Position numbers and translations under genes: made by a program
Virus record (IMG/VR): IMGVR_UViG_3300009716_000731
Coordinates: 32,001 to 96,000 of that record
DNA: 64,000 bases
Origin: a virus
Lineage: Duplodnaviria; Caudoviricetes
Strand: one strand, 5' to 3'
Part shown: positions 755 to 39,503 of the stretch, piece by piece
How positions within the stretch are numbered: the stretch's first letter is position 1
Layout: each line of letters starts with the position of its first letter
Notes under the pieces: generated by a model
Database searches by the model: none
What the model saw: the letters and a program-made list of their open reading frames with translations, nothing else
Told to the model about the DNA's origin: nothing

Positions 755-832
755 TGATCCCACCAGGATTCGAACCCGATAACGCTGGGTTTAGAAGCCA
801 GCTCACCACCAAGGTGATTACGTTGAAGGACC
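755..832 (-). tRNA. Atypical tRNA-like gene; anticodon CUA (amber) if folded symmetrically, otherwise a degenerate tRNA-Arg(UCU)
   Basis: GGTCCTT...TCACC-TTGGT-GGTGA, GCTGG-CTTCTAAAC-CCAGC, GGTTCGAATCC T-loop, 3' TGGGATCA. TATCTTTG promoter element at 851-858. Confidence 0.7.
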
Positions 833-883
833 ATTTCTTTAATTGTTATACAAAGATACAACTATTTTTTATACCACCAAATT

Positions 884-1090
884 TTATTCTTGTTTTTTTA
901 GATCATCAATTGCATATTGTTCTAAAATAGATGGATTGTGAATCCATTCTTTCCAAACATCAAAATCTTTTAATCGCTCGAATGTTTCTTTTGGAATTAA
1001 AACAAATCCATCTGGTGCTACTGCACCAAATTTATGATAGTGAGCGTTTTTTATTTTTTCTTTTATTTGTTCTTCTTTTGTTTTCATCAA
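884..1090 (-). CDS. Hypothetical protein
   Basis: 68-aa ORF, co-oriented with neighbours. Confidence 0.5.
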   Translation of the reverse strand: MMKTKEEQIKEKIKNAHYHKFGAVAPDGFVLIPKETFERLKDFDVWKEWIHNPSILEQYAIDDLKKQE

Positions 1091-1379
1091 TTTGTTCTAA
1101 ACTTACTTTTTTATAACTAATTATCTTTTTATAAAATTTTGGGGACAATTTATATATCAGACTTTCTATTTTTCCTAAAAAAATATTTTTCCAGCTACCT
1201 ACATTACATAGAGCACAATCATTTTTGTATTCTTGGTGTGCACTACAAATAGAGTGCCATTTTTTCTTAAAAATAAAAAATCCTTTATCTTTCATATAAT
1301 ATTTATCTAAAAACTTATTAATTCTTTTGTCTAACTCTTTATTCCCAGAATTAAATTTTTTATTTCTATATACTGACAT
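1032..1379 (-). CDS. Hypothetical protein (Cys/His cluster)
   Basis: ORF with CSAH...CALC. Confidence 0.55.
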   Translation of the reverse strand: MSVYRNKKFNSGNKELDKRINKFLDKYYMKDKGFFIFKKKWHSICSAHQEYKNDCALCNVGSWKNIFLGKIESLIYKLSPKFYKKIISYKKVSLEQIDENKRRTNKRKNKKRSLS

Positions 1380-1424
1380 TTTTATTTATATAAAAAATGG
1401 ACTTAATAGTTTAATATATACATT

Positions 1425-2444
1425 ATGAAGTATATTAAAACAGTTGATGAGTATTCTATAAATGAAGAATTGGAATTCAAAATGAGTTGGAGAGGATTTT
1501 TATTAGGTATATGTATTGTTGCTGCTTATAGGCACTATTTTCCTGCTAAGAAAAATCTCACTTTAGGTGAAATGAATAGAATTGTTGCTGATGTTGATAA
1601 CAAACCCACATTAAAAGAAAAAATTGCTATTAATGCTATAAAAAATAGCTTAATATCAGATCTTAAGCAAGATAAGAAAATCTCAGATGATGAAAGAAAG
1701 AAGCTAATAGATGGTATTAATACTATACCTTTTGTCTTAGTTGATACTGATACTATCCAACTAATTACTGGAAGGGATGCACTTGGTTGTTATTTTGGTT
1801 ACTTGGATAATTTCAAGAATCTAATGACAGTAATATTAGTTGATAGGGAAAGAATTAAATTAGGTACTGATTTTGATGAGGTTATACTACATGAGTTAAG
1901 ACATTTAGTTGATGATTTATTGGTTGATGGTAGAAAAGAATACAGTGAATTATCAAATATTGTTGATATATTAGACAAGGATATTGTTTTGAGGAATGAA
2001 GCAGGAGAGAGAAAGATAAGAAAAAAGATAAATGATTATATTGACGTAATGGTTAAAAAAACCGGTAGAGAAAATGATCCAAAGACTCAGGAAATTGGTC
2101 AAAGACTAAAAGATCAATATTTTGATATTATTTTTTTAGATAAAGATAAAATGAATTATTTAACATCATCATCGGAGATATATGCAAGATTTCATGGATT
2201 AAAAAGATGGATGATAAAAAATGGTTATCTAAAAGATATGAATAGTGAAATAACACAAGATATTATTGTTAAAATGATGCAAAATGAGCAATTGTTGGAT
2301 GTAAATATTATCAGAAAAGACTTCTTCCAATTATTATTTTATATGGATGTTGATTTTATAGGTAAAACGAAAAGTGATGTATCTAAACTAAACTCAATTG
2401 TAACAAATTATAGAGATTATATATCAAATGAAAAACCCGCTTAA
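1425..2444 (+). CDS. Putative zinc metalloprotease with N-terminal CTS-like tag
   Basis: HELRH (HExxH) plus downstream EIYAR; starts MKYIKTVDEYSINEE; hydrophobic segment near N-terminus. Confidence 0.65.
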   Translation: MKYIKTVDEYSINEELEFKMSWRGFLLGICIVAAYRHYFPAKKNLTLGEMNRIVADVDNKPTLKEKIAINAIKNSLISDLKQDKKISDDERKKLIDGINTIPFVLVDTDTIQLITGRDALGCYFGYLDNFKNLMTVILVDRERIKLGTDFDEVILHELRHLVDDLLVDGRKEYSELSNIVDILDKDIVLRNEAGERKIRKKINDYIDVMVKKTGRENDPKTQEIGQRLKDQYFDIIFLDKDKMNYLTSSSEIYARFHGLKRWMIKNGYLKDMNSEITQDIIVKMMQNEQLLDVNIIRKDFFQLLFYMDVDFIGKTKSDVSKLNSIVTNYRDYISNEKPA

Positions 2445-2457
2445 AAGCGGATTTTTT
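2431..2457. terminator. Bidirectional intrinsic terminator
   Basis: AAAAAC-CCGC-TTAAAA-GCGG-ATTTTTT between convergent genes. Confidence 0.6.
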
Positions 2458-4358: not shown

Positions 4359-4443
4359 AATTCTTTTTGTATTATATAATTAAAATAATGATGTCCTCTA
4401 TGAAAAGGTTGATAATTATAACAAAATTAAGAAAAAATTTTTA

Positions 4444-5376
4444 CTATTCCAAACTTGCTAAGTATCTTTCAGCATCTAATGCTGCCATACAACCAGTACC
4501 TGCCGCAGTAATAGCTTGTCTATAAACATTATCTGCTACGTCACCGGCTGCAAAAACACCTGGTATATTAGTTTTAGTTGTTCCTTTTTCAGTAACGATA
4601 TATCCAGTTGAATCTAATGTTAAATAATCCTTAAATATATCTGTATTTGGCTTATGACCAATTGCTAAAAAGAATCCTGTTGCTGGTATCTCAGTTACTT
4701 CTTCTGTTAAGGTATTTTTAACTCTGATTTTAGTAACAACTTGACCGTCTCCAACAACTTCTTCGGTTACCGTGTTCATAAGTATTTCAATGTTTTCCGT
4801 ATTTTTAACTCTATCAACCATAATTTTAGAAGCTCTAAAATCACTTCTTACTAACATAGTTACTTTTTTACATATTTTAGATAAATAGTGTGCTTCTTCA
4901 CAAGCTGAGTCTCCAGCACCAACTACTACAACATTTTGATTTCTATAAAAGAATCCATCACAGATAGCACATGCAGAAACACCACCACCTAATTCTAAGT
5001 ATTTTTGTTCTCCTTTTACACCAGAGTATTTTGCAGTAGCTCCAGTTGATATAATTACGGTATCAGCTTCGATTTGATGATCGTGATTGATTGTAATTAT
5101 TTTTTTATCTGTTGAAAAATCTACTTTCGTTACCAAATTATTTCGTATGTCTGTACCAAATCTTTTAGCTTGTTCTTCCATGTTATTCATAAGATCAATA
5201 CCTTTTATACCATTTATAAAAGCTGGGTAATTTTCAACATCATTGGTTGTTGTTAGCTGTCCACCAGGTTGCATTCCTTGATATAAAACAGGTTTCATAT
5301 TTGCTCTTGCTGCATAAATTGCAGCGGTATACCCTGCAGGTCCTGATCCTATAATAATACATTTAACTTTTTCCAT
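4444..5376 (-). CDS. trxB: Thioredoxin reductase
   Basis: GSGPAG, GGQLTTT, CAICD, GAGDSA, FAAGDV, YRQAITAAG. Confidence 0.97.
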   Translation of the reverse strand: MEKVKCIIIGSGPAGYTAAIYAARANMKPVLYQGMQPGGQLTTTNDVENYPAFINGIKGIDLMNNMEEQAKRFGTDIRNNLVTKVDFSTDKKIITINHDHQIEADTVIISTGATAKYSGVKGEQKYLELGGGVSACAICDGFFYRNQNVVVVGAGDSACEEAHYLSKICKKVTMLVRSDFRASKIMVDRVKNTENIEILMNTVTEEVVGDGQVVTKIRVKNTLTEEVTEIPATGFFLAIGHKPNTDIFKDYLTLDSTGYIVTEKGTTKTNIPGVFAAGDVADNVYRQAITAAGTGCMAALDAERYLASLE

Positions 5377-5408
5377 AATATTTATATAATTATTACTATA
5401 TTTGTTTT

Positions 5409-5855
5409 ATGAATGCAACCAAAAAGTTAAGAGAATTAGGATTTACTAAGATACCTTTTCATAAGCCAAATCCATATAATGATGGAGAAGCTATGATACT
5501 GGATGATCATACTACTAAGCATGTAATTGATAATAAGACAGGTAGGTATGTTCAGGTAAAAGAAAAAAAGATACATCCAAAACAAGATTCACATTGGAAA
5601 TTGGTATTTAATGAACAATATATAATTTGGATTATGGTTAGTAATAATGTAGTTGATAAGGTTTATTTACAAGATAATTTTAATAAAACTAAGAAAACTG
5701 CATATGGATTCTCGTTAAGAAATGACTTAACAGAGTTATATAATTTTAATGGTAGTTTTGGTACATCCACTAAGATAGTTAGTAAAAAACAAATTATAAA
5801 CTTATTACCATTAAGTATTAAAAGAGATTTTATAATAAAAGATTTATTCAAATGA
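5409..5855 (+). CDS. Hypothetical protein with C-terminal motif variant
   Basis: ORF behind TATATTTG; ends KRDFIIKDLFK. Confidence 0.65.
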   Translation: MNATKKLRELGFTKIPFHKPNPYNDGEAMILDDHTTKHVIDNKTGRYVQVKEKKIHPKQDSHWKLVFNEQYIIWIMVSNNVVDKVYLQDNFNKTKKTAYGFSLRNDLTELYNFNGSFGTSTKIVSKKQIINLLPLSIKRDFIIKDLFK

Positions 5856-9411: not shown

Positions 9412-9412
9412 T

Positions 9413-10303
9413 ATGAAATTTTTAAGATTATATGAAGCGTGGGTCAAAAGTGGACCGAGATATATACCAAGTGGTGCTAAATTTAAGAGTAAAGATCCTA
9501 ATGATGATGCTATTTATAAAGTAATTGGTTCGGGAGAAACCACATTATCTTATAATAGTGATAAAGATCCTGAGGTTAAAAGAGATAAGATTTATAACTT
9601 CTTAAAGAATTATGATGAGATATTAGAGCCATTATTAGAACCTAATACTGAAGATACTATTCCAGAAGTTGGTTCTAGATGGATTAATAAAGAAAATAAT
9701 ATTGCTATTGTACATAGAATAAATAACAATTTATTATATTTTTATTTATTAAATGATCCTAGTAATCTTATATCAATGTATATAAGAGAATTTTTATGTA
9801 AGTTTATTCCTAAAGATAAAGATATTTATAGAGATGATATAGAGCTTGACTTTAATAAATCAGTTTATATTGCAGATGAAAAAGCTATAATAGGTGCTTT
9901 TTACATTAAAAAAGAGACTGATAAAGCTTATGAAATATTAAATATAAAAGAATATCAAAGAGATAGTGTTTTTATGGATGGTGCAGACCCTTATTCTGTT
10001 TCTATACATACTACTTTTCTACCTAAGTCTCAGTGTAAAATAATAAAACCGGTTGAAAGTAAAGAAGGATTTTTTTATATAAAAGTTCCTTATTGGTTAT
10101 ATAAAGAAAAGACTGATCTTCAAATAAAAAGATTACCGGTTAGACTTAAAAGAATTTCTATTAAAAATGATGATTATAATAAAAAAGATTTTCTTAAAAT
10201 GTTTGGCAATCCTCATGTAATTAAATATTTCCAAGGTTCAAATCCTGATAAATTAACTAATCAACATATTGAGTCTTATGCTAAGCATGGAAATCTTTCA
10301 TAG
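9413..10303 (+). CDS. Hypothetical protein with CTS-like tag
   Basis: Starts MKFLRLYEAW. Confidence 0.7.
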   Translation: MKFLRLYEAWVKSGPRYIPSGAKFKSKDPNDDAIYKVIGSGETTLSYNSDKDPEVKRDKIYNFLKNYDEILEPLLEPNTEDTIPEVGSRWINKENNIAIVHRINNNLLYFYLLNDPSNLISMYIREFLCKFIPKDKDIYRDDIELDFNKSVYIADEKAIIGAFYIKKETDKAYEILNIKEYQRDSVFMDGADPYSVSIHTTFLPKSQCKIIKPVESKEGFFYIKVPYWLYKEKTDLQIKRLPVRLKRISIKNDDYNKKDFLKMFGNPHVIKYFQGSNPDKLTNQHIESYAKHGNLS

Positions 10304-10770
10304 ATCATAAAGTTGAAATCATATTGGTGTTTTTCATCTTTATCATGAAATTCTACTGAATTTAATATCCATTCACTTCCTATTTCTGGAAAGAAAGTAT
10401 CTGCATCATCAATTGTAGTATTTACTTTTGTAATATCAATTCTATCTAATAGATGCATACTTTGTTTGTATATTTGACCACCACCAATAATAAATACGTC
10501 TTCTCCTTTTGTAAATTCAATAGCTTGTTCAATTGTTTTGAAAGTAAAACAATTTTCAGGTACTTGATAATTTTCTTGATTTGTTATAATTAAGTGAGTT
10601 CTATCTGGAAGAGGTTTTGGGAAAGTCTCAAATGTTTTTCTACCCATTAAGATAAAGTTACCTGATGTAACTTGTTTGAATCTTTTGAAGTCATCTGGTA
10701 AGTGCCAACACAAATCATTATTTCTACCAATTGCCCAATTATTAGAAGCTGCTACTATTGCTGTAATCAT
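10276..10770 (-). CDS. folA: Dihydrofolate reductase
   Basis: AIGRNNDLCWHLPDDFKRFK, MGRKTF, LPDR, IIGGGQIY, DTFFP. Confidence 0.97.
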   Translation of the reverse strand: MITAIVAASNNWAIGRNNDLCWHLPDDFKRFKQVTSGNFILMGRKTFETFPKPLPDRTHLIITNQENYQVPENCFTFKTIEQAIEFTKGEDVFIIGGGQIYKQSMHLLDRIDITKVNTTIDDADTFFPEIGSEWILNSVEFHDKDEKHQYDFNFMIYERFPCLA

Positions 10771-14755: not shown

Positions 14756-14785
14756 AAAAAAGAAGAGTAAAAACTCTTCTTTTTT
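14756..14785. terminator. Bidirectional intrinsic terminator
   Basis: AAAAAAGAAGAG-TAAAAA-CTCTTCTTTTTT. Confidence 0.65.
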
Positions 14786-15752
14786 ATTTTTTATATTCTT
14801 CAAAGAATATTTCAAAGATTGCTTGCATAACTGGTACACATATTGAATTACCTGCTAATGCAACGTGTTTATTCCATAATATATTAGTTGATAAAAGTTT
14901 ATCTATATCATCGTCTTTAACTCCCATAAAACGATAAGCTTCTCTTGGTGATATAAATCTCATTCTACCATCATCTAGCATTATTTGTGTTATGTCAGTA
15001 GTATTTAAGCAAGGAGAACAAGCATCTATTGAGTAAATTCTGCGTCTTTGTTCAAACTTTCTATCTAATCTTTTAGCTAAAAGCTTACAAATACCTTTAT
15101 CTTTAGTTTCTACTAGCTCAATAGGTGGATTAATAAATAAGTTAGAATCTACTTCACTTTCTAAAAATTCTCTCATAGAAACTGTAGGTTGTTGTTTCTT
15201 AACAACGGAATATAATTTTTGGTTAACTGATTCATGTGATTCATTTAAGATAGAGAACATAAATACTCTTTCTCTATTTTGAGCACAGCCATAATCTGCA
15301 CCATTTAAGACGATCCAGCTACTACCATATCCTAATGAGGATAAAGTGTTTATATATTCTTTGAATTGAGTAATATGATTTTTAGATACTAAGTTTTTTA
15401 CATTTTCCATTAGTAAAAACTTAGGTTTGTTGTAAGTAACAATTCGTTCTACTTCATAAAGTAAACCACTACGAGTTCCTTGTTTTATTCCTCTCTGTAC
15501 ACCAGCTAAAGATATATCTTGGCAAGGAAAAGAGTAGGTTAAAAAATCACATTCCGGAAAGTTTTTTTCGTCTATCTTCTTAACATCACCAAGATTACCT
15601 AATACTGTTTTATGTAACGAGTCGTATGCTATATTTGCATTTTTTAATATATCACAGTTTGCAATATTTATGTAGTTTATACCGGCATATTTAAGTGCTA
15701 ATTCTTGTGTTCCATAGCCTGAGAAAAGACTAATTAATCTTAATTGTTTCAT
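14784..15752 (-). CDS. dcm: DNA (cytosine-5) methyltransferase
   Basis: LFSGYG (motif I), SFPCQ (IV), MENV (VI), QNRER (VIII), AGNSI (X). Confidence 0.95.
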   Translation of the reverse strand: MKQLRLISLFSGYGTQELALKYAGINYINIANCDILKNANIAYDSLHKTVLGNLGDVKKIDEKNFPECDFLTYSFPCQDISLAGVQRGIKQGTRSGLLYEVERIVTYNKPKFLLMENVKNLVSKNHITQFKEYINTLSSLGYGSSWIVLNGADYGCAQNRERVFMFSILNESHESVNQKLYSVVKKQQPTVSMREFLESEVDSNLFINPPIELVETKDKGICKLLAKRLDRKFEQRRRIYSIDACSPCLNTTDITQIMLDDGRMRFISPREAYRFMGVKDDDIDKLLSTNILWNKHVALAGNSICVPVMQAIFEIFFEEYKK

Positions 15753-17444: not shown

Positions 17445-18287
17445 TTATAGTATCGATAATCCTGGTTTAGAATTTATTGTTGATAGTGATAATCTACCTG
17501 CAAAATCATCGTAAAATCCTGGCATAATCATAGCTGTAGATTCAATACCCATCATTTTAGCAGGTTTTAAGTTTGTTACAAATAGTAATGTTTTACCAGT
17601 TAACATATCAACGTAATTATCTCCTAATGTCGGTTTGATATTTGTTACGACTGTTCTAAGTTGATCTTCACCAAAGTCAACTTCTAATTTGATAAGTTTA
17701 TCTGATTTAGGTACATCTGTTACCGATTTAATTGTACCTGGTTTAATTTCTAATTTAGCAGAAATGTCTAAAAATTCACTGAATTCAATTTTATCTTTCA
17801 TGTTTAATATATTTATTGCTTTAATTTTACATTCTTCTTTTAGTCCTGGTATTCCTAATTTCCAGGGTTTTACTGGTTCTCCTGTTGAACAGTTTACAAA
17901 ATAATCTTGTTGTTCATCTAAGAAGTCTTGTATATCATCTAAGATAACATACTGAGTTACTTCTGGGTGTCTATCTAACCAAAGTTTTATTTCATGTCCT
18001 CTTTTTACTTGGTCATAATAGACTATATCTGTTGCTTCGCATACATCTACACAGTCTGGTGTTATGTCTATTATTTCTCCTGGTAGTTGACGTTCTTTCC
18101 ATAGGTCTAGCATTCTTTCAATACCTTTATCTTTCCAAGTGGAAGAGATAACGATTTTTGCACCTGTTTTTTCAATAATTTCCTTTAAGTTCTGGACGTA
18201 TTCATCCCTGAAGATATGACCAAATTGGTCTTTAACTGCATAATCTACGTTTAGTACACCGTCTATGTCCAAGAATATAGTTTTCAT
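17445..18287 (-). CDS. HAD phosphatase (Swiss-Army-knife type) fused to a Trbp111/CsaA-like OB-fold tRNA-binding domain
   Basis: IFLDIDGVLN, IVISSTW, RGHEI..WL, YVILDD; then KLEIKPGTI...SDKLIKLEVDFG...VTNLKPAKMMGIES. Confidence 0.85.
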   Translation of the reverse strand: MKTIFLDIDGVLNVDYAVKDQFGHIFRDEYVQNLKEIIEKTGAKIVISSTWKDKGIERMLDLWKERQLPGEIIDITPDCVDVCEATDIVYYDQVKRGHEIKLWLDRHPEVTQYVILDDIQDFLDEQQDYFVNCSTGEPVKPWKLGIPGLKEECKIKAINILNMKDKIEFSEFLDISAKLEIKPGTIKSVTDVPKSDKLIKLEVDFGEDQLRTVVTNIKPTLGDNYVDMLTGKTLLFVTNLKPAKMMGIESTAMIMPGFYDDFAGRLSLSTINSKPGLSIL

Positions 18288-20161: not shown

Positions 20162-20175
20162 TTCGGATTTTTTAG

Positions 20176-20250
20176 TGTCCGTGGTAGGGTTCGAACCTAC
20201 GCGTCTCCTCGTTATGAGCGAGGCGCCTTAACCAACTTAGCTACACGAAC
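20176..20250 (-). tRNA. tRNA with CAU anticodon (elongator Met or Ile2)
   Basis: GTTCGTG/CACGGAC acceptor, CCTCG-CTCATAA-CGAGG anticodon arm, GGTTCGAACCC T arm; no encoded CCA. Confidence 0.92.
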
Positions 20251-20341: not shown

Positions 20342-20349
20342 TATCTTTG
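20342..20349 (+). promoter_or_regulatory. Representative Bacteroidota-type -7 promoter element TAnnTTTG
   Basis: Same motif just upstream of genes at 851, 4422, 5397, 18293, 19224, 20287, 22233, 27561, 35209, 38974. Confidence 0.7.
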
Positions 20350-20354
20350 TCGCT

Positions 20355-20711
20355 ATGGAAATAAAAGTAGTCAATAATATCGCATTTAGGGTTATTCAAA
20401 GAATGGATTTTCCATTTGATGAAGAGTTTATTATAGCAGAAGATATTTCACATTTCTATGCGGATGCTAATACTATAAATATAGTTCTTTTAAGAGATAA
20501 TCCAACCAAGCCAATTATGACATATAAAGATGTCTTAGAAGAGATTGAGTATTTATATGATGATTCTATTAGATGGAGAAGTGATGAGATTAGAGATAAG
20601 CTACGTTTTTTTTATCATAAAGTATCTAATATAATGAAAACTTATAAAAGAGAAGAAAAGATTAATAAACTATTACAAGTAAATAAATGGGAGTTACATC
20701 TAGCATGTTAA
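20355..20711 (+). CDS. Hypothetical protein with C-terminal motif
   Basis: KREEKINKLL; TATCTTTG upstream. Confidence 0.65.
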   Translation: MEIKVVNNIAFRVIQRMDFPFDEEFIIAEDISHFYADANTINIVLLRDNPTKPIMTYKDVLEEIEYLYDDSIRWRSDEIRDKLRFFYHKVSNIMKTYKREEKINKLLQVNKWELHLAC

Positions 20712-21210: not shown

Positions 21211-22164
21211 TTACTTTATAATATCTGATTTCCATAAAAAGTCTTTATATAAATTATCAGTATTTATTGATTTGTAAAGTGCTGTTTTGTTTTTTATACC
21301 TAAAAATAGTATAACATCTGATATATCTATAAATTCATTTATTAGTATAAGTTCTTTGTTGTATTGTTTTATATTTATATATTTTTTACCTTTGTTATTA
21401 AGCTTATTCTTAAATTTTAATTGTATATCAATTATATCATCTTTTTTTAGCATATTATAGCTAAAATAATAGTTTTTATGCTTAGAACATTTTCCTTTTA
21501 ACACTAACTTAATACCATTTGTATTTAGATTTAGACTTTTACTACATTTATTTATACTATCCCATTCTTCTATTAAGTTACCATCTAATGAATATTGATA
21601 TATTTTTACTTTTTTAAGTCCCTTATCTTTTCTAACATTTATGTTATTTTCAATAAAAATTTTTCTTAGAAAAGTTCTACTTATATTTAATAATAAGCAT
21701 ATTTCTCTAGTTGTTTTATTCTCATTATATAATTTGGTAACTATAGGTGCTAATATATCTCGTTTTGACTTCCATCTATCATGTATTATTTTTTTTGTTG
21801 AATCTTTCATTTTTAATCCACCGTTATTAGAAGCCTTAGGTCTTGCATTATATCCATTTATATATGTATTAAACTTATCTATATAATATTGTTCTCTTAA
21901 TAGACAATGATCTATTGCACACTCTTCAACTATTTCAAATATTAAATTGTCACCATTGAAGTATTTATTGAATGCTTTTTGTAAAATATTACACCCTGAA
22001 TTATTATTTTTTAATTGAGATATATGTGATTTCCATCTTCCATAAAATCCATCTTCACCAGAAGCACTACCTATGTAAATTTTATTAGATTTAGAATCAC
22101 AGAAGAATATTTTATACACTCCAGTTGTCTTTGGAAATTTATCTATATCGTTTATTTTATACAT
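21211..22164 (-). CDS. GIY-YIG homing endonuclease with NUMOD1-like repeats
   Basis: GVYKI...IYIGSA, R.KSH, REQYYID...GYN; IYQYSLDGNLIEEWDSI. Confidence 0.9.
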   Translation of the reverse strand: MYKINDIDKFPKTTGVYKIFFCDSKSNKIYIGSASGEDGFYGRWKSHISQLKNNNSGCNILQKAFNKYFNGDNLIFEIVEECAIDHCLLREQYYIDKFNTYINGYNARPKASNNGGLKMKDSTKKIIHDRWKSKRDILAPIVTKLYNENKTTREICLLLNISRTFLRKIFIENNINVRKDKGLKKVKIYQYSLDGNLIEEWDSINKCSKSLNLNTNGIKLVLKGKCSKHKNYYFSYNMLKKDDIIDIQLKFKNKLNNKGKKYINIKQYNKELILINEFIDISDVILFLGIKNKTALYKSINTDNLYKDFLWKSDIIK

Positions 22165-24500: not shown

Positions 24501-25835
24501 ATGATCTCTAAATACAATGATTTTATACTTGAAAGTAAATTAGAACTTTTATTGGAAGCAAAATTAGAGCTTACGAGTAATTTTTGTAAAGCTCTTGATT
24601 CTATGTCTGATAATAAGATTGCTAAATTTATATTATCATTAAATGATAAAGATATTGAAGATTTAGATCGAAATCTTATTGATATTACTGATTATGAAGA
24701 TAAAGTTTCTTTTATTGCTCAAAATAGATATGACTCAACAAGATTTTATAAGATGATTGATTCTGGTGATGTTTATTCTGGATTATCAGAGAGAGCATTT
24801 AAGAAAGGTTTGATTAAAAATTATGATTACTATAGAGGAATTGATACTCCATTGTTGGGTACAATTGAACCATTTGATGTTTCTGATATAGTTTCCTCTG
24901 ATTTCAATAGAATAGTTTATAAGTTTACTTATAAAGATGATGATGGTATTGAAAGAGATGTTATTACTGGTGATAAATATTTAGTTAGAGATTTTTCTAA
25001 TTCTACTAAAACAGAAATATCTGTTGGTAGATTTATAAGAGCATTTTTGCGTAAGCTAAATTTTGAGTTTACTGATAAAGAAATTGAAGAATTTGTAAAC
25101 AAGTATAAAGCTTATATACGAATCAAAAATGATATTTTTAGTAGATTTCGTGAAGTTAGTGGAGAACAGATAAAAGAATATTATAGAGAAGAAAATTATC
25201 AAAGAGGTGGTGGTAGTCTTAATAATTCTTGTATGAGACATGAAAAATGTCAACCTTATTTAGATATTTATTCTAAAAACCCAGAAGTTTGTAAATTAAT
25301 TATACTTGAATCAGATGATGAAGATGATCTTATATCTGGTCGTGCTCTTTTATGGACTGATACTAAAGGTAGGAAAATAATGGATAGAGTTTATACTACT
25401 GATAGTTCTCTTATAGAACTTTTTATAAAATATGCAATTAAAAATAATTATTTATATAAACAAGAACAAGACTTTTATGCTGACACTTTTTTAGTTAAAG
25501 ATAATAAAGTTTTAAGTAAAGAAGAATCAAAAGTAGTTATAAAGTTAAATGATTTGAAATATTCAAAATATCCTTATATAGATACTTTTAAGAATTATTA
25601 CTATGAGGAAAATATTTTAACTAATTTTTATATCAATAAAGCAATAGCAAATGAGTTGGGTATTAAATCTACATGGTGTTATACATTAGAATATACAGAT
25701 GGATCTTATTTGGATGAAGATGAAGAATGTCCAAGATGTTATGGTTCAGGTGATGCTCGTTGTCCAGAATGTGATGGTGAAGGTTGTGATGAATGTGATG
25801 GTATTGGATTTACAGAATGTCCTGGTTGTCAATAA
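24501..25835 (+). CDS. SCM/GRALLW-domain protein with DnaJ-type Zn finger (paralog 3)
   Basis: NSCMR, GRALLW, MDRVY, YPYIDT; 4 CxxC; starts MISKYNDFILE. Confidence 0.8.
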   Translation: MISKYNDFILESKLELLLEAKLELTSNFCKALDSMSDNKIAKFILSLNDKDIEDLDRNLIDITDYEDKVSFIAQNRYDSTRFYKMIDSGDVYSGLSERAFKKGLIKNYDYYRGIDTPLLGTIEPFDVSDIVSSDFNRIVYKFTYKDDDGIERDVITGDKYLVRDFSNSTKTEISVGRFIRAFLRKLNFEFTDKEIEEFVNKYKAYIRIKNDIFSRFREVSGEQIKEYYREENYQRGGGSLNNSCMRHEKCQPYLDIYSKNPEVCKLIILESDDEDDLISGRALLWTDTKGRKIMDRVYTTDSSLIELFIKYAIKNNYLYKQEQDFYADTFLVKDNKVLSKEESKVVIKLNDLKYSKYPYIDTFKNYYYEENILTNFYINKAIANELGIKSTWCYTLEYTDGSYLDEDEECPRCYGSGDARCPECDGEGCDECDGIGFTECPGCQ

Positions 25836-25863
25836 AAAAAAGGAGACTAATGTCTCCTTTTTT
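25834..25863. terminator. Bidirectional intrinsic terminator
   Basis: A-run GGAGAC-TAAT-GTCTCC T-run. Confidence 0.8.
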
Positions 25864-26599
25864 ATTTTTTCAAAACTTCTTTGGTGTAATACTCATCAAA
25901 TCCATTAAGATAAGTAGTAATTGGTGTTGATTTTTCTGTAATGATAATCTCATCAATAAAACCAAAGTCTAATGCTTCTTGTGAATTTAACCATTTATCA
26001 CGTCTTGCACTTTCTAAAACTTCATCAAAAGATTTTCCACTATTTTCTGCCAACATTTTGAAAAGAACATAGTTATATTTTTCTGATTCCATTTGAGAGA
26101 TACGATTATCTTCAACGTGACCACTTGCTCCAGAAGAAACTTGGTGAATCATAACTTTTGAGAAATTAAGAGAAGCTCTTTTACCTTTTGTTCCTGATGA
26201 TAAAAGAATTGAACCCATAGATGCTGCCATACCAGTGTTGATTGTTTGTACATCTGAGTTGATATATCTCATAACATCTACCATACCAAGACCTGCTAGT
26301 ACTGAACCTCCTGGTGTATTAACATGCATTGTTATGTCTTTTTTCTCAACGGAGTCTAAATACATTAGCTGAGCTTGGACAACATTACACATTTGCTCAT
26401 TAACAACACCGGCTACCCAGATAATTCTATCTCTCATTAAGCGAGAGAATACATCAATTTGAGTCATTCTCATTTCTCTTTCTTCAAGAATGTAAGGGGT
26501 CATACTATTCTCTACTAAATTTTTTTCAAAGTAGTGTAAATTCATAGATGAGATACCATTACTTAGTGCGTACTTTTCAAAATCTTTTTTAATATCCAT
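25862..26599 (-). CDS. clpP: ATP-dependent Clp protease proteolytic subunit
   Basis: DVFSRLMRDRII, NTPGGSV, AASMG, MIHQ, RDKWL. Confidence 0.95.
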   Translation of the reverse strand: MDIKKDFEKYALSNGISSMNLHYFEKNLVENSMTPYILEEREMRMTQIDVFSRLMRDRIIWVAGVVNEQMCNVVQAQLMYLDSVEKKDITMHVNTPGGSVLAGLGMVDVMRYINSDVQTINTGMAASMGSILLSSGTKGKRASLNFSKVMIHQVSSGASGHVEDNRISQMESEKYNYVLFKMLAENSGKSFDEVLESARRDKWLNSQEALDFGFIDEIIITEKSTPITTYLNGFDEYYTKEVLKK

Positions 26600-26674: not shown

Positions 26675-27550
26675 ATGAAAAAAACATTTATTTACGGATT
26701 ATTTTCAGAAAGGGATAATATCATAAGATATATTGGTAAATCTGATAACCCTAATAAGAGGTTAAAAACACATATTTATCAAATGAATGATAGTAATACT
26801 CATAAAAATAATTGGATTAGAAAAGTAGTTTCAAATGGGGAAAAATTATGCTATAAAATAATTGAGGAGGTTTATTATCATGAGTGGAGACAGAAAGAAA
26901 TATTCTGGATTAGTAAATATAGCAATTTAGTCAATACATCTAAGGGTGGTCAAGGTGGTAGAGGTATTAAATATAATATATCATATGAGGATTGTAAAAA
27001 ATGGATTTCTGAAAACCTTACTATTAAAAGTAAAAGTAATTGGATGTTAAATAGTAAAAATTTACCCGACTTTATACCAAAAAATCCATACGAAACCTAT
27101 AAGAGTAGAGGATGGGTATCATGGGGTGATTTTTTATCTACTAATAGAGTACAAGATAATAAGTTATGCAATTATCTTTCCTATGAGGAAGCAAAAGAGT
27201 GGATAAAACTAAACATGTCGAATAACATAAATAGTAAAAATTGGAAAACAGTTAATAAAAACGAATTAATTCCTAATAGACCTGAAAGATATTATAGAAA
27301 TAAAGGTTGGATATCTTGGTCTGATTTTTTATCAAATAACAGAGTACAGAATCAAAAAAAAGAGTTTTTAGGTTATGATGATTTTATTAATTTTTTTATA
27401 GAGAATAAAATAATAATATCAAATATTTCTGATTGGTATAAATTTAGAAAAGATGCTCCTATTTTTATATGCAGTCGACCAGATATTTATTATAAAAATA
27501 AAGGTTGGATATCATGGGTGGAATTTTATAAAAAAATTATTATTTGTTAA
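26675..27550 (+). CDS. GIY-YIG homing endonuclease with three PxxPxxxY..GWxSW repeats
   Basis: FIYGL...RYIGKS, KRLKTH, KEIFWI; repeated C-terminal units. Confidence 0.85.
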   Translation: MKKTFIYGLFSERDNIIRYIGKSDNPNKRLKTHIYQMNDSNTHKNNWIRKVVSNGEKLCYKIIEEVYYHEWRQKEIFWISKYSNLVNTSKGGQGGRGIKYNISYEDCKKWISENLTIKSKSNWMLNSKNLPDFIPKNPYETYKSRGWVSWGDFLSTNRVQDNKLCNYLSYEEAKEWIKLNMSNNINSKNWKTVNKNELIPNRPERYYRNKGWISWSDFLSNNRVQNQKKEFLGYDDFINFFIENKIIISNISDWYKFRKDAPIFICSRPDIYYKNKGWISWVEFYKKIIIC

Positions 27551-30027: not shown

Positions 30028-31260
30028 ATGGATAATATTAATTTAATTGAGTCTTTTTCTGAGTTAAAGGACATGAAAAACATCGATAAAAATTCGATGG
30101 TGAAAATAATGCAAGAAGTTTTCAAGACTATTATTGCTAAAAAATATGGAACAGCAGATAACTTCGATATTATTGTTAATCCTAATAAAGGTGATTTAGA
30201 AATCTGGAGAAATAGAATTGTTGTTGAAGATTCTTATGAAGATTTTGACGAAAATTTACATATTAGAATCACTGATGCTAATAGAATTGAGGATGGTTTT
30301 GAATTAGGTGAGGACTTTACTGATGAATTAAAAATTGCAGATATTGGTAGAAGATCAATCTCAACAATTCGTCAATTTCTAAAATCTAAAATTTTAGATT
30401 TAGGTAAGCAAAATATCTATAAGAAATATAAAGAAAGAGAAAACGAAATTATTGTAGGTGAAGTTCATCAAGTAACTCGCAAAGAAGTAGTTATTTTAGA
30501 TGATGAAGGTGCAGAATTTATTTTACCAAGAACTGAACAAGTACCCGGTGATTACTTTAGAAAAGGCGACTCTGTTAGAGCATTATTAAAAAGTGTTGAG
30601 ATTGATGCAGGTAAACTACATATGATTTTATCAAGAACATCTAATAAATTTATGGAGAAATTATTCGAATATGAAATTCCAGAAGTTTTTGATGGTTTAG
30701 TTATTATCAAAGGTGTTGTAAGAGAACCTGGTAAAAAGGCAAAAGTTGCAGTTGAATCTTACGATGATAGAGTAGATGTTGTTGGAACTTGTGTTGGTGT
30801 TAAAGGTGGTAAAATTTTACCAATTGTTAGAGAGTTAAATAATGAGAATATTGATATTATTAACTATACAACTAACAGTTCACTTTATGTTATGAGAGCT
30901 TTAGGTAATATGAAATGTGATGTTACTATTGACAATGTTACTAAAAGAGCTATTGTTACTATGCCATCTGAGTTTATTTCATCTTCGATTGGTAAAGGTG
31001 GGTTAAATATTAAATTAGCTAGTAAATTAACAGGTTATAAAATTGACTTATACAGTGATGATATTTCTGATGAAGATGTTCACTTAGATGATTTCATTGA
31101 TGAAATTGATGGTTGGATTATTGATCAACTTAAAGAAATTGGTTGTGATACTGCAAAGAGTGTATTAAAACATTCAGTTTCTGAATTAGTAAAACGAACA
31201 GATTTAGAAGAAGAAACCATTAGAGAAGTAATAAATATATTAAGTTCAGAGTTTGAATAA
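30028..31260 (+). CDS. nusA: Transcription termination/antitermination factor NusA
   Basis: Bacteroidota-type N-terminus, S1 domain, LSR, EIPEV, REPGKKAKVAV, CVGVKG, IGKGGLNIKLA. Confidence 0.95.
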   Translation: MDNINLIESFSELKDMKNIDKNSMVKIMQEVFKTIIAKKYGTADNFDIIVNPNKGDLEIWRNRIVVEDSYEDFDENLHIRITDANRIEDGFELGEDFTDELKIADIGRRSISTIRQFLKSKILDLGKQNIYKKYKERENEIIVGEVHQVTRKEVVILDDEGAEFILPRTEQVPGDYFRKGDSVRALLKSVEIDAGKLHMILSRTSNKFMEKLFEYEIPEVFDGLVIIKGVVREPGKKAKVAVESYDDRVDVVGTCVGVKGGKILPIVRELNNENIDIINYTTNSSLYVMRALGNMKCDVTIDNVTKRAIVTMPSEFISSSIGKGGLNIKLASKLTGYKIDLYSDDISDEDVHLDDFIDEIDGWIIDQLKEIGCDTAKSVLKHSVSELVKRTDLEEETIREVINILSSEFE

Positions 31261-33804: not shown

Positions 33805-33841
33805 ATAAAAACAAAGAATAGTTTTTACTATATATAAAATT

Positions 33842-35185
33842 ATGAATGCAGAAAAGACAATTTCAGATTTTTTATCCAATGAGTACAAAGAGTTTGCTAT
33901 GTACTCAATCGAAGGTCGTGCAATACCTTCTGTTATAGATGGATTTAAGCCAACACATAGAAAAATTATACATATCTCTAATCAAATTTGGAAAACAGGT
34001 AATGAGAAAAATCTAAAAGTTTTTCAATTAGCAGGTAAAGTAGCTTCTGATGCTTTTTATCATCACGGTAATACATCATTAGAAAATGCTATTGTAACGA
34101 TGGCTCAAAAGTTCAAAAACAATGCTCCTTTATTAGAAGAGATTGGACAGTTTGGATCTTTAAGAAGTCCACAACCAGGTGCAGCACGTTATATTGGAAC
34201 TAAGTTATCTAACAATTTTAGGTTTATCTATAAAGACTTTGATCTTTTAGAATATAAAGAAGAAGAAGGTGAATCAATTGAGCCTCATTACTTTTTACCT
34301 ATTATTCCAACTATCTTATTAAATGGTTCTTCTGGTATTGCAGTAGGATTCTCATCTAATATCTTAAATAGAGACATTAAAGACATTATAGATTCTTGTA
34401 CTAAGGTTTTAGCGGGAAAGAAACAATCGTTGATAAAACCTTCTCTAAATGAGTTTACTGGTGAGTTTATACAAGATAAAGAGAATAATAAAAGATGGAT
34501 AATAAGAGGTAGATTCCAAAAGGTAAATACATCTACGGTTAAAATATTAGAGTTACCACCTTCTATGACTTATGAGAAATATGAAGAGATATTAGATAAG
34601 TTAGTTGATAATAAAGATATAGTTTCCTATGATGATAATTGTAAAGATAATATAGATTATACAATTAAGTTTCAGAGAAGTGTTTTAGAGAAGTTAGATG
34701 ATACAGCTTTAATAAAGCTATTGAAGTTAGAAGAATCATCAACTGAGATATTTACTTCATTAGATGAGAGAGGTAAATTAAAAATATTTGAAACTGCGGA
34801 AGAGATTATAGAATATTTTACTAACTTTAGATTAACTTATTATATTAAGAGAAAAGAGTATTTATTAGATAAATTGAATAAAGAGCTAAAAATACTAAGT
34901 AATCGTGGAAGATTCATAAAGGCTATTTTAGATGAGAAAATTAAAATTAATAATGTTGCTAAATCAGAAATAATTGAGTCTATAAAGTCATTAGGTTTAG
35001 ATTTAGTAGATGATTCATATGATTACTTATTAAGAATGCCAATTTACTCTTTAACTAAAGAGCTTTTTGAAAAACTAAAAGAAGATTTTACAAAGAAAAA
35101 GCAAGAAATAAAAGAGTTAGAAGAAACAGATCCTAAAAATATGTATTTAGAGGATCTTCAAGAACTGAAAAAAAGATATAAATAA
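33842..35185 (+). CDS. Type II DNA topoisomerase medium subunit (T4 gp52 / GyrA-ParC N-terminal-like)
   Basis: RAIPSVIDGFKPTHRK, YHHG, GQFG, AARY catalytic Tyr, GIAVGF. Confidence 0.95.
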   Translation: MNAEKTISDFLSNEYKEFAMYSIEGRAIPSVIDGFKPTHRKIIHISNQIWKTGNEKNLKVFQLAGKVASDAFYHHGNTSLENAIVTMAQKFKNNAPLLEEIGQFGSLRSPQPGAARYIGTKLSNNFRFIYKDFDLLEYKEEEGESIEPHYFLPIIPTILLNGSSGIAVGFSSNILNRDIKDIIDSCTKVLAGKKQSLIKPSLNEFTGEFIQDKENNKRWIIRGRFQKVNTSTVKILELPPSMTYEKYEEILDKLVDNKDIVSYDDNCKDNIDYTIKFQRSVLEKLDDTALIKLLKLEESSTEIFTSLDERGKLKIFETAEEIIEYFTNFRLTYYIKRKEYLLDKLNKELKILSNRGRFIKAILDEKIKINNVAKSEIIESIKSLGLDLVDDSYDYLLRMPIYSLTKELFEKLKEDFTKKKQEIKELEETDPKNMYLEDLQELKKRYK

Positions 35186-35232
35186 TTGTTTATATCTAAA
35201 TAAAACATTAATTTTGTAGAAAATAATTAAAA

Positions 35233-37373: not shown

Positions 37374-37402
37374 AAAAACCACTCAATAGAGTGGTTTTAT
37401 TT

Positions 37403-37954
37403 TTATAGTGGAAGTTCTTCTTCTCCTTCTTCTGTTTGACCTTGTGCCTGACCTTGACCTTGTGCCTGACCTTGACCTTGTGCCTGACCTTGACCTTGTG
37501 CTTGACCTTGTGCAGGTGCTTGAGTCTGTGGTTCTTCAAATTCATCATCACCTTGTGCTTGACCTTCTGGTTGAGCTTGCATTTGTGGTTGAGCTTGCAT
37601 TTGTGGTTGAGCTTGCGGTTCAGTTTGTACTTGTACTTGACCTTGTCCTTGAGTTTGAGCTTGAGTTTGACCACCCATTATTGCACCACCTGGAATTTTA
37701 TCAACATCAACAAAGTTAAGTGTTACATATTTAATTATTTCCTCAGCAATATCTACATCACCAAAAAATTGACGTAAATTTTTACCTGTGGTGTCTTTTA
37801 CTTTTTTTACATAAGCATTAATAAGAGATTGAGGAATATCAATCATAGTTTTTACTTTATAAATATCATTTACTTGTAATACTGATTCTCTTATTATTTC
37901 TTCTCTATTTTTCTTAATACGAAAAGATTCAAATTTTTTAACGTGTTTCATCAT
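37403..37954 (-). CDS. CTS-tagged protein with Q/G/A-rich low-complexity tail
   Basis: Starts MKHVKKFESF; QGQAQG and QPQMQA repeats. Confidence 0.75.
   Translation of the reverse strand: MMKHVKKFESFRIKKNREEIIRESVLQVNDIYKVKTMIDIPQSLINAYVKKVKDTTGKNLRQFFGDVDIAEEIIKYVTLNFVDVDKIPGGAIMGGQTQAQTQGQGQVQVQTEPQAQPQMQAQPQMQAQPEGQAQGDDEFEEPQTQAPAQGQAQGQGQAQGQGQAQGQGQAQGQTEEGEEELPL
37437..37620. repeat. Two in-frame 18-bp tandem repeat arrays
   Basis: TGACCTTGTGCCTGACCT x3 or more; TGGTTGAGCTTGCATTTG x~2.7. Confidence 0.85.
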
Positions 37955-38009
37955 TAAAGATTAATTTTTTTATTATATATTAATATTAAAAACTCATTTT
38001 TTTCACTTT

Positions 38010-38522
38010 TTAGTGAATTATTCCAACAGATATTAAAACTAATCCAACTATAGCCAGTGTTCCTAAAGAACCACCTACCCACATCTTAGTTTTCATCTTA
38101 CCGATCTGTTTATCTTTAATATCAATTTGTTCTTTTTGATTAGCTAGTTGTGATTCGAGAACTTGATTTCTTTGCATCCAAGATAAAATTTCACCTTGTA
38201 AGTCTGTAATTTTACCATCTTTTATTACTAATTGTCCTTCTAATTTACCCACCGTAATATTTAATTTAGCAATAGCTTCATCTTTTTCTGAAATTACTTT
38301 TACACAAAGAGTTTCATATTCTTTCATCTCAATAGAAAGTTTTTCAAATTTTTCTAAAAGATCAGAACTATTATTTAATTTCATAGCTTGTGGTATTGTC
38401 ATTACGACGACTTTTTGTCCTAATGAATCTATCTCAAATTTAGGATATTTTATTTCTGGAGTTACTTGTGCAAATAAAGTAACACTTATTAGTAGTGTTA
38501 ATAATGTTAATAAATTTTTCAT
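38010..38522 (-). CDS. Signal peptide, coiled coil and C-terminal TM protein (spanin-like candidate)
   Basis: LFA-Q signal cleavage site, heptad-rich middle, C-terminal hydrophobic helix. Confidence 0.55.
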   Translation of the reverse strand: MKNLLTLLTLLISVTLFAQVTPEIKYPKFEIDSLGQKVVVMTIPQAMKLNNSSDLLEKFEKLSIEMKEYETLCVKVISEKDEAIAKLNITVGKLEGQLVIKDGKITDLQGEILSWMQRNQVLESQLANQKEQIDIKDKQIGKMKTKMWVGGSLGTLAIVGLVLISVGIIH

Positions 38523-38525
38523 AAA

Positions 38526-38933
38526 CTAATTTAATTTTTTATTTAAGGATTCTAATAGTTGCTCGTCTGTTAATTGTGGTGGATTTTTCTTAAAATCTTC
38601 AATCTCTTGTCTTGTTTTAGTTATTCCACCTTTTAGATTATCTAATTCAGCTTTAGTCTTATTTGCCTTTTCGATAGCAAGTCTGGCTTCTTTTTTAGCT
38701 TGAGTAACCTCTATTGATTTCTTCTTATCTTCAGCATCTTTTAGTTGGTATTTAGTTTTCCAATTTGCAATGTCTGCATCAATAGCATTTTTTTCTTCTT
38801 CTAGTTTCTCATATTTTTGTTCTAACTCTTTTAGTCTTTCTTTATCTTCATCATTTCCTGACAAATACCATTTTAGACCAAAAAAAGAAACTATTACTAA
38901 AAGAGCTATTATAATATAATGTTCTAATTTCAT
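38526..38933 (-). CDS. N-terminal TM plus coiled-coil protein (i-spanin-like candidate)
   Basis: YIIIALLVIVSFFGL followed by a long charged coiled coil. Confidence 0.55.
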   Translation of the reverse strand: MKLEHYIIIALLVIVSFFGLKWYLSGNDEDKERLKELEQKYEKLEEEKNAIDADIANWKTKYQLKDAEDKKKSIEVTQAKKEARLAIEKANKTKAELDNLKGGITKTRQEIEDFKKNPPQLTDEQLLESLNKKLN

Positions 38934-38999
38934 AAAATTGCCTTTTTTTATTTTATATATTAAATATTTTATATATATTTGCAAATAAATTATTATATA

Positions 39000-39503
39000 A
39001 TGAAATTAATATGTTTTGATTTAGATGATACTCTGTGTCATACTATGAAACCTGAGGAGGGAAAACCTTTATGGAAAGAAAAAACTGGTCAAGATTGGCC
39101 TCACCGTGGTTGGTGGAGTAAGCCAGAAACTTTAGATTTAGATATTTTTGATACAAAAGTAAATCCTTATGTTTATGAAGAGTATCTTAAAGCTGTTTCT
39201 GATCCAGATAACTATGTTATTTGTGCAACTGGTCGTGTTGAAAAATTAAGACCAGAAGTTGAGGCATTGTTAAGTAAATTAAACTTAGCATTTGATGCTA
39301 TTTACTTGAATACTGGTGGTGATACTTTTACATTCAAATGTAGGTTATTTGAGAAATTAATTAGAAAATTAGGTGTTGATGAATTCGTTATGTATGACGA
39401 CCGTTACGAACATTTAGTTGAATTTGAAAAATGGGCTAAAACAATTGACTGTAGAATTACTATAATTGATGTAAAAAACAAAACAAAAAAAGTTTTTAAG
39501 TAA
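39000..39503 (+). CDS. HAD phosphatase (Swiss-Army-knife RNA-repair-like)
   Basis: CFDLDDTL, GWWS, ATGR, TFTFK, MYDDR. Confidence 0.8.
   Translation: MKLICFDLDDTLCHTMKPEEGKPLWKEKTGQDWPHRGWWSKPETLDLDIFDTKVNPYVYEEYLKAVSDPDNYVICATGRVEKLRPEVEALLSKLNLAFDAIYLNTGGDTFTFKCRLFEKLIRKLGVDEFVMYDDRYEHLVEFEKWAKTIDCRITIIDVKNKTKKVFK

Follow-up and report, generated by a model that had tools for sequence, protein, structure and literature searches.

Probable early genes for tRNA repair and supply dispersed across a megaphage genome fragment

The 64-kb window studied here corresponds to bases 32001-96000 of a 151,253-bp IMG/VR virus record (IMGVR_UViG_3300009716_000731; CheckV completeness 26%) and carries RNA-repair-type phosphatases and nucleotidyltransferases (NTases), a tRNA-Met, a non-canonical tRNA-like RNA and two cores related to aminoacyl-tRNA synthetases (aaRS). 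We consider it probable that this is an early, standard-code region with a dispersed set of translation-maintenance genes and not one machine, in which an RNA repair kit of a known type stands beside a tRNA supply arm and a separate class II aaRS-like core. The repair half is a known kind of system, and the fusion of its HAD_SAK_2 phosphatase with a tRNA-binding oligonucleotide-binding (OB) fold is a twist specific to this clade. A preliminary description of the window had listed the same genes and RNAs, which are all present and belong to the families it gave, and had united them in a single modular system for tRNA charging and repair. The analysis established which domains are present, that their catalytic motifs are intact, where the promoters lie, how the parts are distributed and what surrounds them. 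It argues against such a unity: the parts are independently distributed in six relatives, the class II core has another class of promoter and is linked to pyrimidine genes, and leuS in relatives lies beside tRNA-Leu arrays.

The fusion of a HAD phosphatase with a Trbp111-like domain, first noticed at position 17445, was confirmed at the level of both sequence and fold. Its HAD moiety keeps the DxD and DD catalytic motifs (DIDG / SST / DD) and scores above the Pfam cut-off of HAD_SAK_2, and its OB domain reaches 57.8 bits with PF01588 for a cut-off of 27. The top Foldseek matches of this domain are 8vtz, 3ers and 2cwp, with the Trbp111 proteins of A. aeolicus and E. coli at 29-36% identity, and the structural matches also include MetRS-C, EMAP II, Arc1p-C and CsaA; the last ~23 residues of the fusion model have a predicted local distance difference test (pLDDT) score below 50. 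The open reading frame (ORF) extends back to 18329, and its likely start is M15 at 18287. Indeed, the gene calls of relatives (277-280 aa) amount to 95% of the ORF counted from 18329, which fits a start near M15, and a TATCTTTGC box occupies 18300-18293, 5 nt before the M15 ATG.

The fused architecture is found only in ~40 clusters, all with at least 66% identity; more distant relatives possess a stand-alone HAD of ~165 aa, and some complete relatives carry a stand-alone tRNA_bind gene of ~115 aa. From this pattern, the fusion appears to have arisen inside this narrow clade. The HAD_SAK_2 family has been described as mostly stand-alone (PMC7824862), and literature searches found no HAD-Trbp111 fusion. 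The phage OB domain shares both the PF01588 sequence signature and the fold with Trbp111, the C-terminal domain of MetRS, Arc1p-C and EMAP II, whereas it is joined to a phosphatase and not to a synthetase or a synthetase cofactor; with its last ~23 residues poorly modelled, binding to the elbow as a dimer is for this domain a putative property. Since Trbp111 binds the tRNA elbow, the OB domain would anchor HAD_SAK_2 on any L-shaped tRNA. This combination fits tRNA-targeted end healing, the most economical mechanism being a phosphatase that, anchored on the elbow, would have access to the 3' end or to an anticodon loop that has been cut. If the reading of the window given above holds, the fusion would offer a simple testable case of an end-healing enzyme aimed at tRNA by shape and not by sequence.

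The other repair enzymes were likewise assigned as the preliminary description had proposed. The second RNA-repair-type phosphatase, HAD_SAK_1, scores above the Pfam cut-off of its family, keeps intact DxD and DD motifs (DLDD / TGR / DD) and matches the 'polynucleotide kinase' family phrog_415 over profile positions 20-165 of 218. Of the two Pol-beta NTases, the larger is an RlaP protein that aligns over its full length with phrog_388 (2.5e-54); the smaller retains its catalytic motif, and its homolog in Bacillus phage Nate is located 1.6 kb from an RNA ligase gene. The same contig adds further parts to this kit. Three matches to PF09414 (Rnl-type RNA ligases) lie 7-13 kb upstream of the window, at contig positions 18806-19315, 19431-19895 and 24938-25417, a match to phrog_548 ('RNA ligase') is also present in the contig, and a Pth2 gene is found at contig 31.5 kb, just upstream of the window.

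Table 1. Main protein and RNA genes of the window; positions are those of the 64-kb window.
Feature	Position	Strand	Evidence
Non-canonical tRNA-like RNA, CUA (amber-reading) anticodon	755..833	-	Cloverleaf-like fold; TATCTTTG box 17-18 nt upstream
Minimal bacterial-type LeuRS, 419 aa	2441..3700	-	Domain and structure matches
CoaD-like HIGH-family adenylyl/cytidylyltransferase, 149 aa	3909..4358	-	PF01467 9e-12; TAATTTTG box 63 nt upstream
Stand-alone AsnRS/AspRS-like class II catalytic core, 297 aa	6123..7016	-	tRNA-synt_2 (PF00152) 2.5e-14, positions 11-292 of 308
HAD_SAK_2 phosphatase + Trbp111-like tRNA-binding OB fold	17445..18287	-	HAD_SAK_2 3.7e-27; tRNA_bind (PF01588) 1.2e-15
tRNA-Met(CAU)	20175..20250	-	61.9 bits; TAATTTTG box 36-37 nt upstream
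Small Pol-beta superfamily NTase, 222 aa	22258..22926	+	Polbeta match; GS...DWD intact; TATTTTTG box 17 nt upstream
RlaP-family (RNA-ligase-associated Pol-beta) NTase, 416 aa	35233..36483	+	PF10127 9.5e-20; TAATTTTG box 16 nt upstream
HAD_SAK_1 phosphatase	39000..39503	+	HAD_SAK_1 7e-11; ATG 39000; TATATTTGC box 18 nt upstream

In jumbo phages, RNA repair is known to draw on tRNAs together with RNA ligases, SAK-type HAD phosphatases, RlaP and Pth2 (Iyer et al. 2021, PMC7824862). RlaP has been shown to extend the 3' ends of damaged RNA by one or two nucleotides and to make repaired tRNA chargeable again (bioRxiv 10.64898/2025.12.29.696909). The studied phage resembles these toolkits in having HAD_SAK_1, HAD_SAK_2, RlaP, PF09414 ligases, Pth2 and phage tRNAs in one genome, and the proposed role, reversal of host attacks on tRNA, is the same. 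It differs from them in that the genes form separate early units spread over more than 60 kb instead of ligase-linked operons, in that HAD_SAK_2 is fused to the Trbp111-like OB fold, and in that no kinase was found in the 151-kb contig. In phage T4, Pnkp and Rnl1 repair the tRNA-Lys cleaved by PrrC. The heal-then-seal logic is common to both cases, with a HAD-type 3'-phosphatase and an RNA ligase acting on 5'-P/3'-OH ends; the HADs of the studied phage, however, are devoid of a fused kinase, and a separate OB fold, not Pnkp, would direct the repair to tRNA.

From these parts, we infer the following substrates and order of steps, with host anticodon nucleases as the presumed target of the response. 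Each gene or short unit, placed behind its own host-type sigma-A promoter, is probably made early. The two HAD phosphatases would remove the 3' or 2' phosphates that nucleases leave on cut tRNA, one or two lost 3' nucleotides would be restored by RlaP and possibly also by the small Pol-beta NTase, and the Rnl-type ligases encoded upstream of the window would seal the break, with Pth2 freeing stalled peptidyl-tRNA. The supply arm would consist of the phage tRNAs and the minimal LeuRS charging phage tRNA-Leu. The class II core would belong to a different pathway, as an adenylate-forming enzyme linked to pyrimidine synthesis. If so, Lak-type megaphages, which are among the largest gut phages, would turn on their genes for tRNA repair and supply as infection begins, by means of host-type promoters.

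The expected early expression rests on the promoters. As stated in the preliminary description, an exact TAnnTTTG box precedes all seven units named there, 4-63 nt upstream of their starts when M15 is used for the fusion and ATG 39000 for HAD_SAK_1, and the extra pyrimidine of the TANNTTTGY consensus is present at nearly all sites. In Bacteroidota, TAnnTTTG(Y) serves as the general -7 element for the housekeeping sigma-A (PMC12632263). The window contains 96 exact sites, about the number expected from its composition, and the signal is positional, with 12 of them falling in the ~4% of the sequence located within 70 nt upstream of gene starts. Across the contig, the distance from box to start codon has two modes, 15-18 nt and 4-5 nt. 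As to the -33 TTTG element of such promoters, some sites (the tRNA-like RNA, 18916, RlaP and tRNA-Met) have a TTTG or TTG ~19-22 nt upstream and others do not. Every RNA-repair gene follows such a box, including the ligase gene at contig 24863-25510 and the ORF heading the two-ligase operon. Because this is a general host promoter, found before 29 of the 185 contig genes (24 of them in the first 72 kb), it is not a signal specific to the system: it constitutes a general class and not a private regulon, and it probably marks an early class transcribed by the host polymerase. Early co-expression of the repair genes by this polymerase is thus plausible from the sequence.

Two further observations concern transcription. 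In five cases, the box stands only 4-5 nt before the ATG (window 5397-5409, 18300-18287 on the minus strand and 20342-20355; contig 5110-5123 and 113244-113256); such gaps would give mRNAs with little or no leader. Another promoter-like motif, AATATATA(C/T), was found 3-27 nt before 21 gene starts of the window, including those of the largest genes (upstream of 1425, 7513, 12441, 12387 on the minus strand, 18386, 23134, 26675, 29145, 51424, 55584, 57347, 57930, 60696 and others). It is almost mutually exclusive with TAnnTTTG and probably represents a phage-specific middle or late promoter class.

Distribution of the components was assessed in six relatives that carry the mini-LeuRS and are at least 97% complete (Table 2). 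The preliminary description had named independent distribution across related phages beforehand as the outcome contrary to a single system, and independent distribution is largely what these six genomes display, the RNA ligases being the sole constant part.

Table 2. Components in six relatives, at least 97% complete, carrying the mini-LeuRS (+, match; -, no match; numbers are gene matches).
Genome	Class II core	HAD_SAK_2	RlaP	HAD_SAK_1	tRNA_bind	RNA ligases
G011	-	-	+	+	-	3
G013	-	+	-	+	-	3
G014	-	-	-	-	+	3
G019	-	+	-	-	-	3
G021	-	+	+	+	+	2
G023	-	-	+	weak	+	4
Total	0/6	3/6 (always stand-alone)	3/6	4/6	3/6 (stand-alone)	6/6

In some relatives, the genes do come close to each other: RlaP, HAD_SAK_2, tRNA arrays and the mini-LeuRS gene lie within ~6 kb in G021/G022, and HAD_SAK_2 is located ~3 kb from leuS in G019. 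Only in G021/G022, which are distant relatives, is the linkage between NTase and phosphatase close. Such linkage fits a loose 'tRNA island' and not an obligate complex.

Several points weigh against a repair set, and some of them could be taken to mean that there is no functional set at all, the window simply holding unrelated accessory genes under a generic early host promoter, with HADs acting as nucleotide phosphatases, NTases as anti-defence or antitoxin-like proteins, and aaRS as codon-usage helpers. Indeed, HAD enzymes of this kind could act on nucleotides instead. The small NTase matches phrog_388 weakly and has a weak MntA-like resemblance as well. HAD_SAK and RlaP are patchy in complete relatives, so that none of them is indispensable. 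The repair genes are non-operonic and 4-50 kb apart, with ClpP/ClpS, NusA, GyrA, DHFR, a DNA methylase and homing endonucleases between them, and searches of the 151-kb contig for a 5'-kinase (AAA_33), a 2H phosphoesterase and a CCA-adding enzyme gave no match, a weak absence given that it covers ~26% of the genome. The wide use of the same box along the contig points the same way. On the other hand, the HAD_SAK and RlaP families are defined by their association with RNA ligases, it is difficult to see why a nucleotide phosphatase should be joined to a tRNA-binding fold, RlaP, HAD_SAK_2, tRNAs and leuS do cluster in G021/G022, and seven of the ten credible TAnnTTTG units of the window are RNA- or tRNA-related. 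A mere collection of unrelated genes therefore seems unlikely to us, and a dispersed kit for tRNA maintenance is the reading that we retain.

The central element of the supply arm is a small LeuRS. It matches tRNA-synt_1/1g and the bacterial LeuRS model TIGR00396 (leuS_bact; 6e-112), and its score of 375 bits remains below the family cut-off of 548. The best solved relative is the CP1-less LeuRS of Mycoplasma mobile (PDB 3ziu, 1.4e-80), with an alignment that covers residues 37-275 and 356-550 of the 637-residue chain. Among 23 homologs, neither the HIGH (HCGH) and KMSKS motifs nor the four ZN1 cysteines vary, and megaphage contigs encode relatives of the protein with 56-99% identity. Both synthetase cores of the window had been described as lacking tRNA-recognition domains. 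The class II protein is devoid of its OB domain; for LeuRS the description is only partly exact, since it has no CP1 editing domain, no leucine-specific domain and no C-terminal tRNA-elbow domain but keeps a shortened helical bundle. The M. mobile enzyme is a natural LeuRS without CP1 and leucine-specific domains (PMC3643597). In other bacterial LeuRS, the C-terminal domain touches the elbow and variable arm of the tRNA, and aminoacylation depends critically on it (PMC3561953). Like its M. mobile counterpart, the phage enzyme is without CP1, and ahead of KMSKS only a short peptide replaces the leucine-specific domain. It is, however, shorter, 419 versus 637 aa, through the lack of ~80 internal residues and of the C-terminal domain, and its family is phage-encoded and found beside phage tRNA-Leu genes.

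Since phage tRNA-Leu arrays adjoin leuS in relatives (L018, L024, L025, L028 and L030), the genomic context points to ordinary leucylation of phage tRNAs by the mini-LeuRS. To our knowledge, LeuRS reads no anticodon in any case. In some of these relatives, tRNAs of 74-75 nt with Leu anticodons and no long variable arm occur beside normal tRNA-Leu genes of 81-86 nt and the mini-LeuRS (L018 4785-4858; L024 4791-4865, 5007-5081 and 5091-5165; L028 3934-4008, 4117-4191 and 4565-4639). The mini-LeuRS, without the C-terminal domain that contacts the variable arm, and these short-arm tRNAs may be co-adapted. As a highly conserved natural minimal synthetase with no editing domain, the mini-LeuRS is of interest for synthetase evolution and for the engineering of orthogonal pairs. 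The proposed coaD-leuS operon fared less well. The box is present upstream of coaD (Table 1), but a gap of 208 nt separates the two genes and their pairing is not kept even in close relatives. The CoaD-like protein itself scores 102.6 bits with TIGR01510 (coaD), for a cut-off of 103.3.

These data bear on the integrated model of the preliminary description, that of anticodon-independent charging coupled to repair, in which the Trbp111 domain of the fusion would serve both stripped cores in trans and the NTases would supply CCA. Trbp111 binds the same region of tRNA as the C-terminal domain that the mini-LeuRS lacks. This domain being the one that contacts the tRNA elbow (PMC3561953), a replacement in trans is conceivable, the units share an early promoter class, and no CCA-adding enzyme was found in the contig. 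However, the mini-LeuRS is present in three complete genomes without any tRNA_bind domain (G011, G013 and G019), and where stand-alone tRNA_bind genes exist, they lie 10-70 kb from leuS. Furthermore, the range of the fusion does not extend beyond a narrow clade, and the class II core, absent from all six relatives, combines another promoter class with a pyrimidine link. As to the CCA ends, the host genus group encodes its own CCA enzyme, as found in a Bacteroides control genome, and the phage tRNA genes checked in relatives are devoid of encoded CCA anyway. Such an integrated model is, in our view, very improbable compared with a dispersed set in which LeuRS simply charges phage tRNA-Leu.

Both RNAs of the window had been described as tRNAs without encoded CCA. 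Indeed, CTA follows the 3' end of tRNA-Met and CAA that of the RNA at 755-833; the latter is non-canonical, and lack of CCA is the norm in the clade, being observed in 22 of 22 tRNA-Leu genes checked in relatives. The G1-C72 pair of tRNA-Met indicates an elongator-type or Ile2-type tRNA. An initiator was ruled out by this pair together with an anticodon stem without the run of three G-C pairs.

The RNA at 755-833 gave no ARAGORN call at default settings and no Rfam (RF00005) match at E<=1, and was found by ARAGORN only at the relaxed ps60 setting, as 'Pyl(cta)'. It has a canonical T arm and T loop, a 7-bp acceptor stem, the discriminator A, an 8-nt connector between the acceptor and D stems and a 9-nt anticodon loop. 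Homologs were found in two other megaphage lineages, in L006, the only one of 33 leuS loci with this RNA nearby, and in L213, which was added by an exact-pattern scan. Across these three sequences, 92.4% of the cells of the 22 pairs are paired and four pairs are changed on both sides, compared with 35-58% paired in slid controls, a comparison limited to three sequences; the anticodon stem-loop is invariant. Altogether, 755-833 looks like a real, odd tRNA.

Identity of the phage matters for the role of this RNA. A DNA search of the phage collection for near-identical phages gave no match. At the protein level, relatives with 77-99% identity are encoded on contigs of 635-649 kb, one of which (635 kb) has a gene order in common with the window, and more distant ones, with 56-72% identity, on complete phage genomes of 369-519 kb. 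On these grounds, the contig (GC ~27%) appears to be a fragment of a ~0.6-Mb Lak/Mahaphage-like megaphage of the huge gut phage type. Published work places the hosts of this clade in the Bacteroidota (PMC7162821; bioRxiv 10.1101/2021.08.26.457843). Phages of the Lak clade read TAG as a sense codon and encode suppressor tRNAs often missed by detection tools, and Jade phages possess 'code change modules' made of a tRNA, an aaRS and a release factor (RF) (bioRxiv 10.1101/2021.08.26.457843).

It could accordingly be imagined that the CUA RNA is an amber suppressor for late genes with in-frame TAG elsewhere in the genome, and that the main purpose of the anticodon-blind mini-LeuRS and/or of the NTases and HADs is its maturation and charging. 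Besides the habits of the clade, this agrees with the covariation of the RNA in three megaphage lineages, with its invariant anticodon stem-loop, with a discriminator A as in tRNA-Leu, and with its position 1.6 kb from the mini-LeuRS behind an early promoter of its own. As in the Jade module (suppressor tRNA, TrpRS and RF1; bioRxiv 10.1101/2021.08.26.457843), a suppressor-type tRNA and an aaRS would lie in standard code within the early region of a phage from a stop-recoding clade. In contrast to that module, the contig shows neither a release factor nor recoded genes, and the aaRS is a LeuRS while the published reassignments are of TAG to Gln (bioRxiv 10.1101/2021.08.26.457843). The coding density also argues against it: with the standard code, 92% of the whole contig is coding, all 151 kb are clean in code 11, and reading TAG or TGA as sense brings no gain. 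An alternative code was therefore rejected for the contig, and the window is assigned to the standard code. Finally, the RNA accompanies only one leuS locus out of 33, and leuS tracks ordinary tRNA-Leu arrays in relatives. We thus regard a module for code change as quite unlikely, and the mini-LeuRS is better placed in the tRNA supply arm of the dispersed set.

The class II core probably stands apart from the tRNA genes and represents a separate, potentially more novel lead than the repair genes. Its match begins at position 11 of the catalytic domain profile, the N-terminal OB anticodon-binding domain being absent, and motifs 2 and 3 are intact (SYRAE...RH...FEFE and GAGIGLTRL). The best NCBIfam score is 31.5 bits for a cut-off of 414; the AlphaFold2 (AF2) model, with a pLDDT of 94.6, matches the fold of AsnRS/AspRS cores (E ~1e-18). 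Upstream of the gene, the box is of the AATATATA type, not TAnnTTTG, and the genes for TrxR and DHFR are nearby. An exhaustive search retrieved 677 representative clusters of this family, typically 270-300 aa in length. Its members are present in more than 586 viral contigs, including the cyanophages P-SSM2, P-SSM5 and P-SSM7, where they are annotated 'tRNA ligase', and at 56-61% identity in metagenome-assembled genomes of Patescibacteria, DPANN archaea, Dependentiae, Coxiellaceae, Chlamydiae and Bacteroidota. Neither the ESM Atlas nor the cluster names offered more for the core than a generic 'tRNA ligase' label. Clustering of genes around the viral members (Hsp70, calcineurin-like phosphoesterase, FKBP, lysozyme-like protein and PPK2) reflects a single aquatic phage lineage and is uninformative.

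The cellular context, by comparison, is suggestive. In 26 of 81 cellular loci, the core is directly beside orotate phosphoribosyltransferase (OPRT) or orotidine 5'-monophosphate (OMP) decarboxylase genes, sometimes together with dihydroorotate dehydrogenase (DHODH). Two fusion architectures were also found, DHODH-core and core-OMP decarboxylase, the latter beside OPRT and DHODH. Fusions or neighbourhoods of this kind are present in L049, L051, L134, L139, L140, L143, L148-L152, L160, L164, L167, L173, L176, L182, L185, L187, L191, L206, L207 and L209. Among 20 genomes with the core beside pyrimidine genes, about ten have a strong DHODH, only one has an aspartate carbamoyltransferase (ATCase) above the cut-off, only one has a type I dihydroorotase (DHOase) above it, with two more near the cut-off, and none has a type II DHOase. 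For most of the core-carrying genomes with a DHODH, neither ATCase nor DHOase was matched. DHODH and OMP decarboxylase were not found in the 151-kb phage contig.

The closest precedent for a stripped AsnRS-type core working as a metabolic ligase is the archaeal AsnRS-like asparagine synthetase A (AS-AR; PDB 3p8t, 3rex and 1nnh), which is likewise an AsnRS/AspRS core of ~290 aa without an anticodon-binding domain (TM-score ~0.65 by target length). The sequence of the phage core is, however, nearer to true AsnRS/AspRS (1e-14) than to AS-AR (8e-7), and the family is found in the context of DHODH, OPRT and OMP decarboxylase, not of asparagine metabolism. In our reading, its members are adenylate-forming metabolic ligases that possibly feed dihydroorotate synthesis. 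We tentatively propose, without giving it better than even chances, that the core belongs to an undescribed, widespread family of ~280-aa proteins derived from AsnRS/AspRS, adenylate-forming and not tRNA enzymes, which would supply dihydroorotate or an orotate precursor to DHODH, OPRT and OMP decarboxylase in phages and in reduced-genome bacteria without ATCase and DHOase. Chemically, an aspartate-derived beta-carboxylate might be activated in the manner of AsnA before the ring is closed. The core may instead have an AsnA-like role, and literature searches found no paper on an aaRS-like pyrimidine enzyme or on such a link. If true, the pyrimidine connection could expose an unrecognised step of a central pathway, which would change the 'tRNA ligase' annotation in cyanophages and huge phages.

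Other genes are interspersed with those described above. Among the RNA genes lie a TrxR-like flavoenzyme (4444-5376, minus strand), a dihydrofolate reductase (DHFR; 10276-10770, minus), a C5 cytosine DNA methylase (14784-15752, minus) and a GyrA/ParC-like topoisomerase subunit (33842-35185, plus). Homing-endonuclease-type genes of the NUMOD/I-HmuI-like and GIY-YIG kinds are found among the accessory genes (21211-22164, minus; 26675-27550, plus), one of them adjoining the Pol-beta NTase gene. The phage also encodes ClpP (25862-26599, minus), a ClpS adaptor directly after HAD_SAK_1 (39505-39786, plus) and a NusA-like protein (30028-31260, plus), which suggests remodelling of host proteolysis and transcription by the phage.

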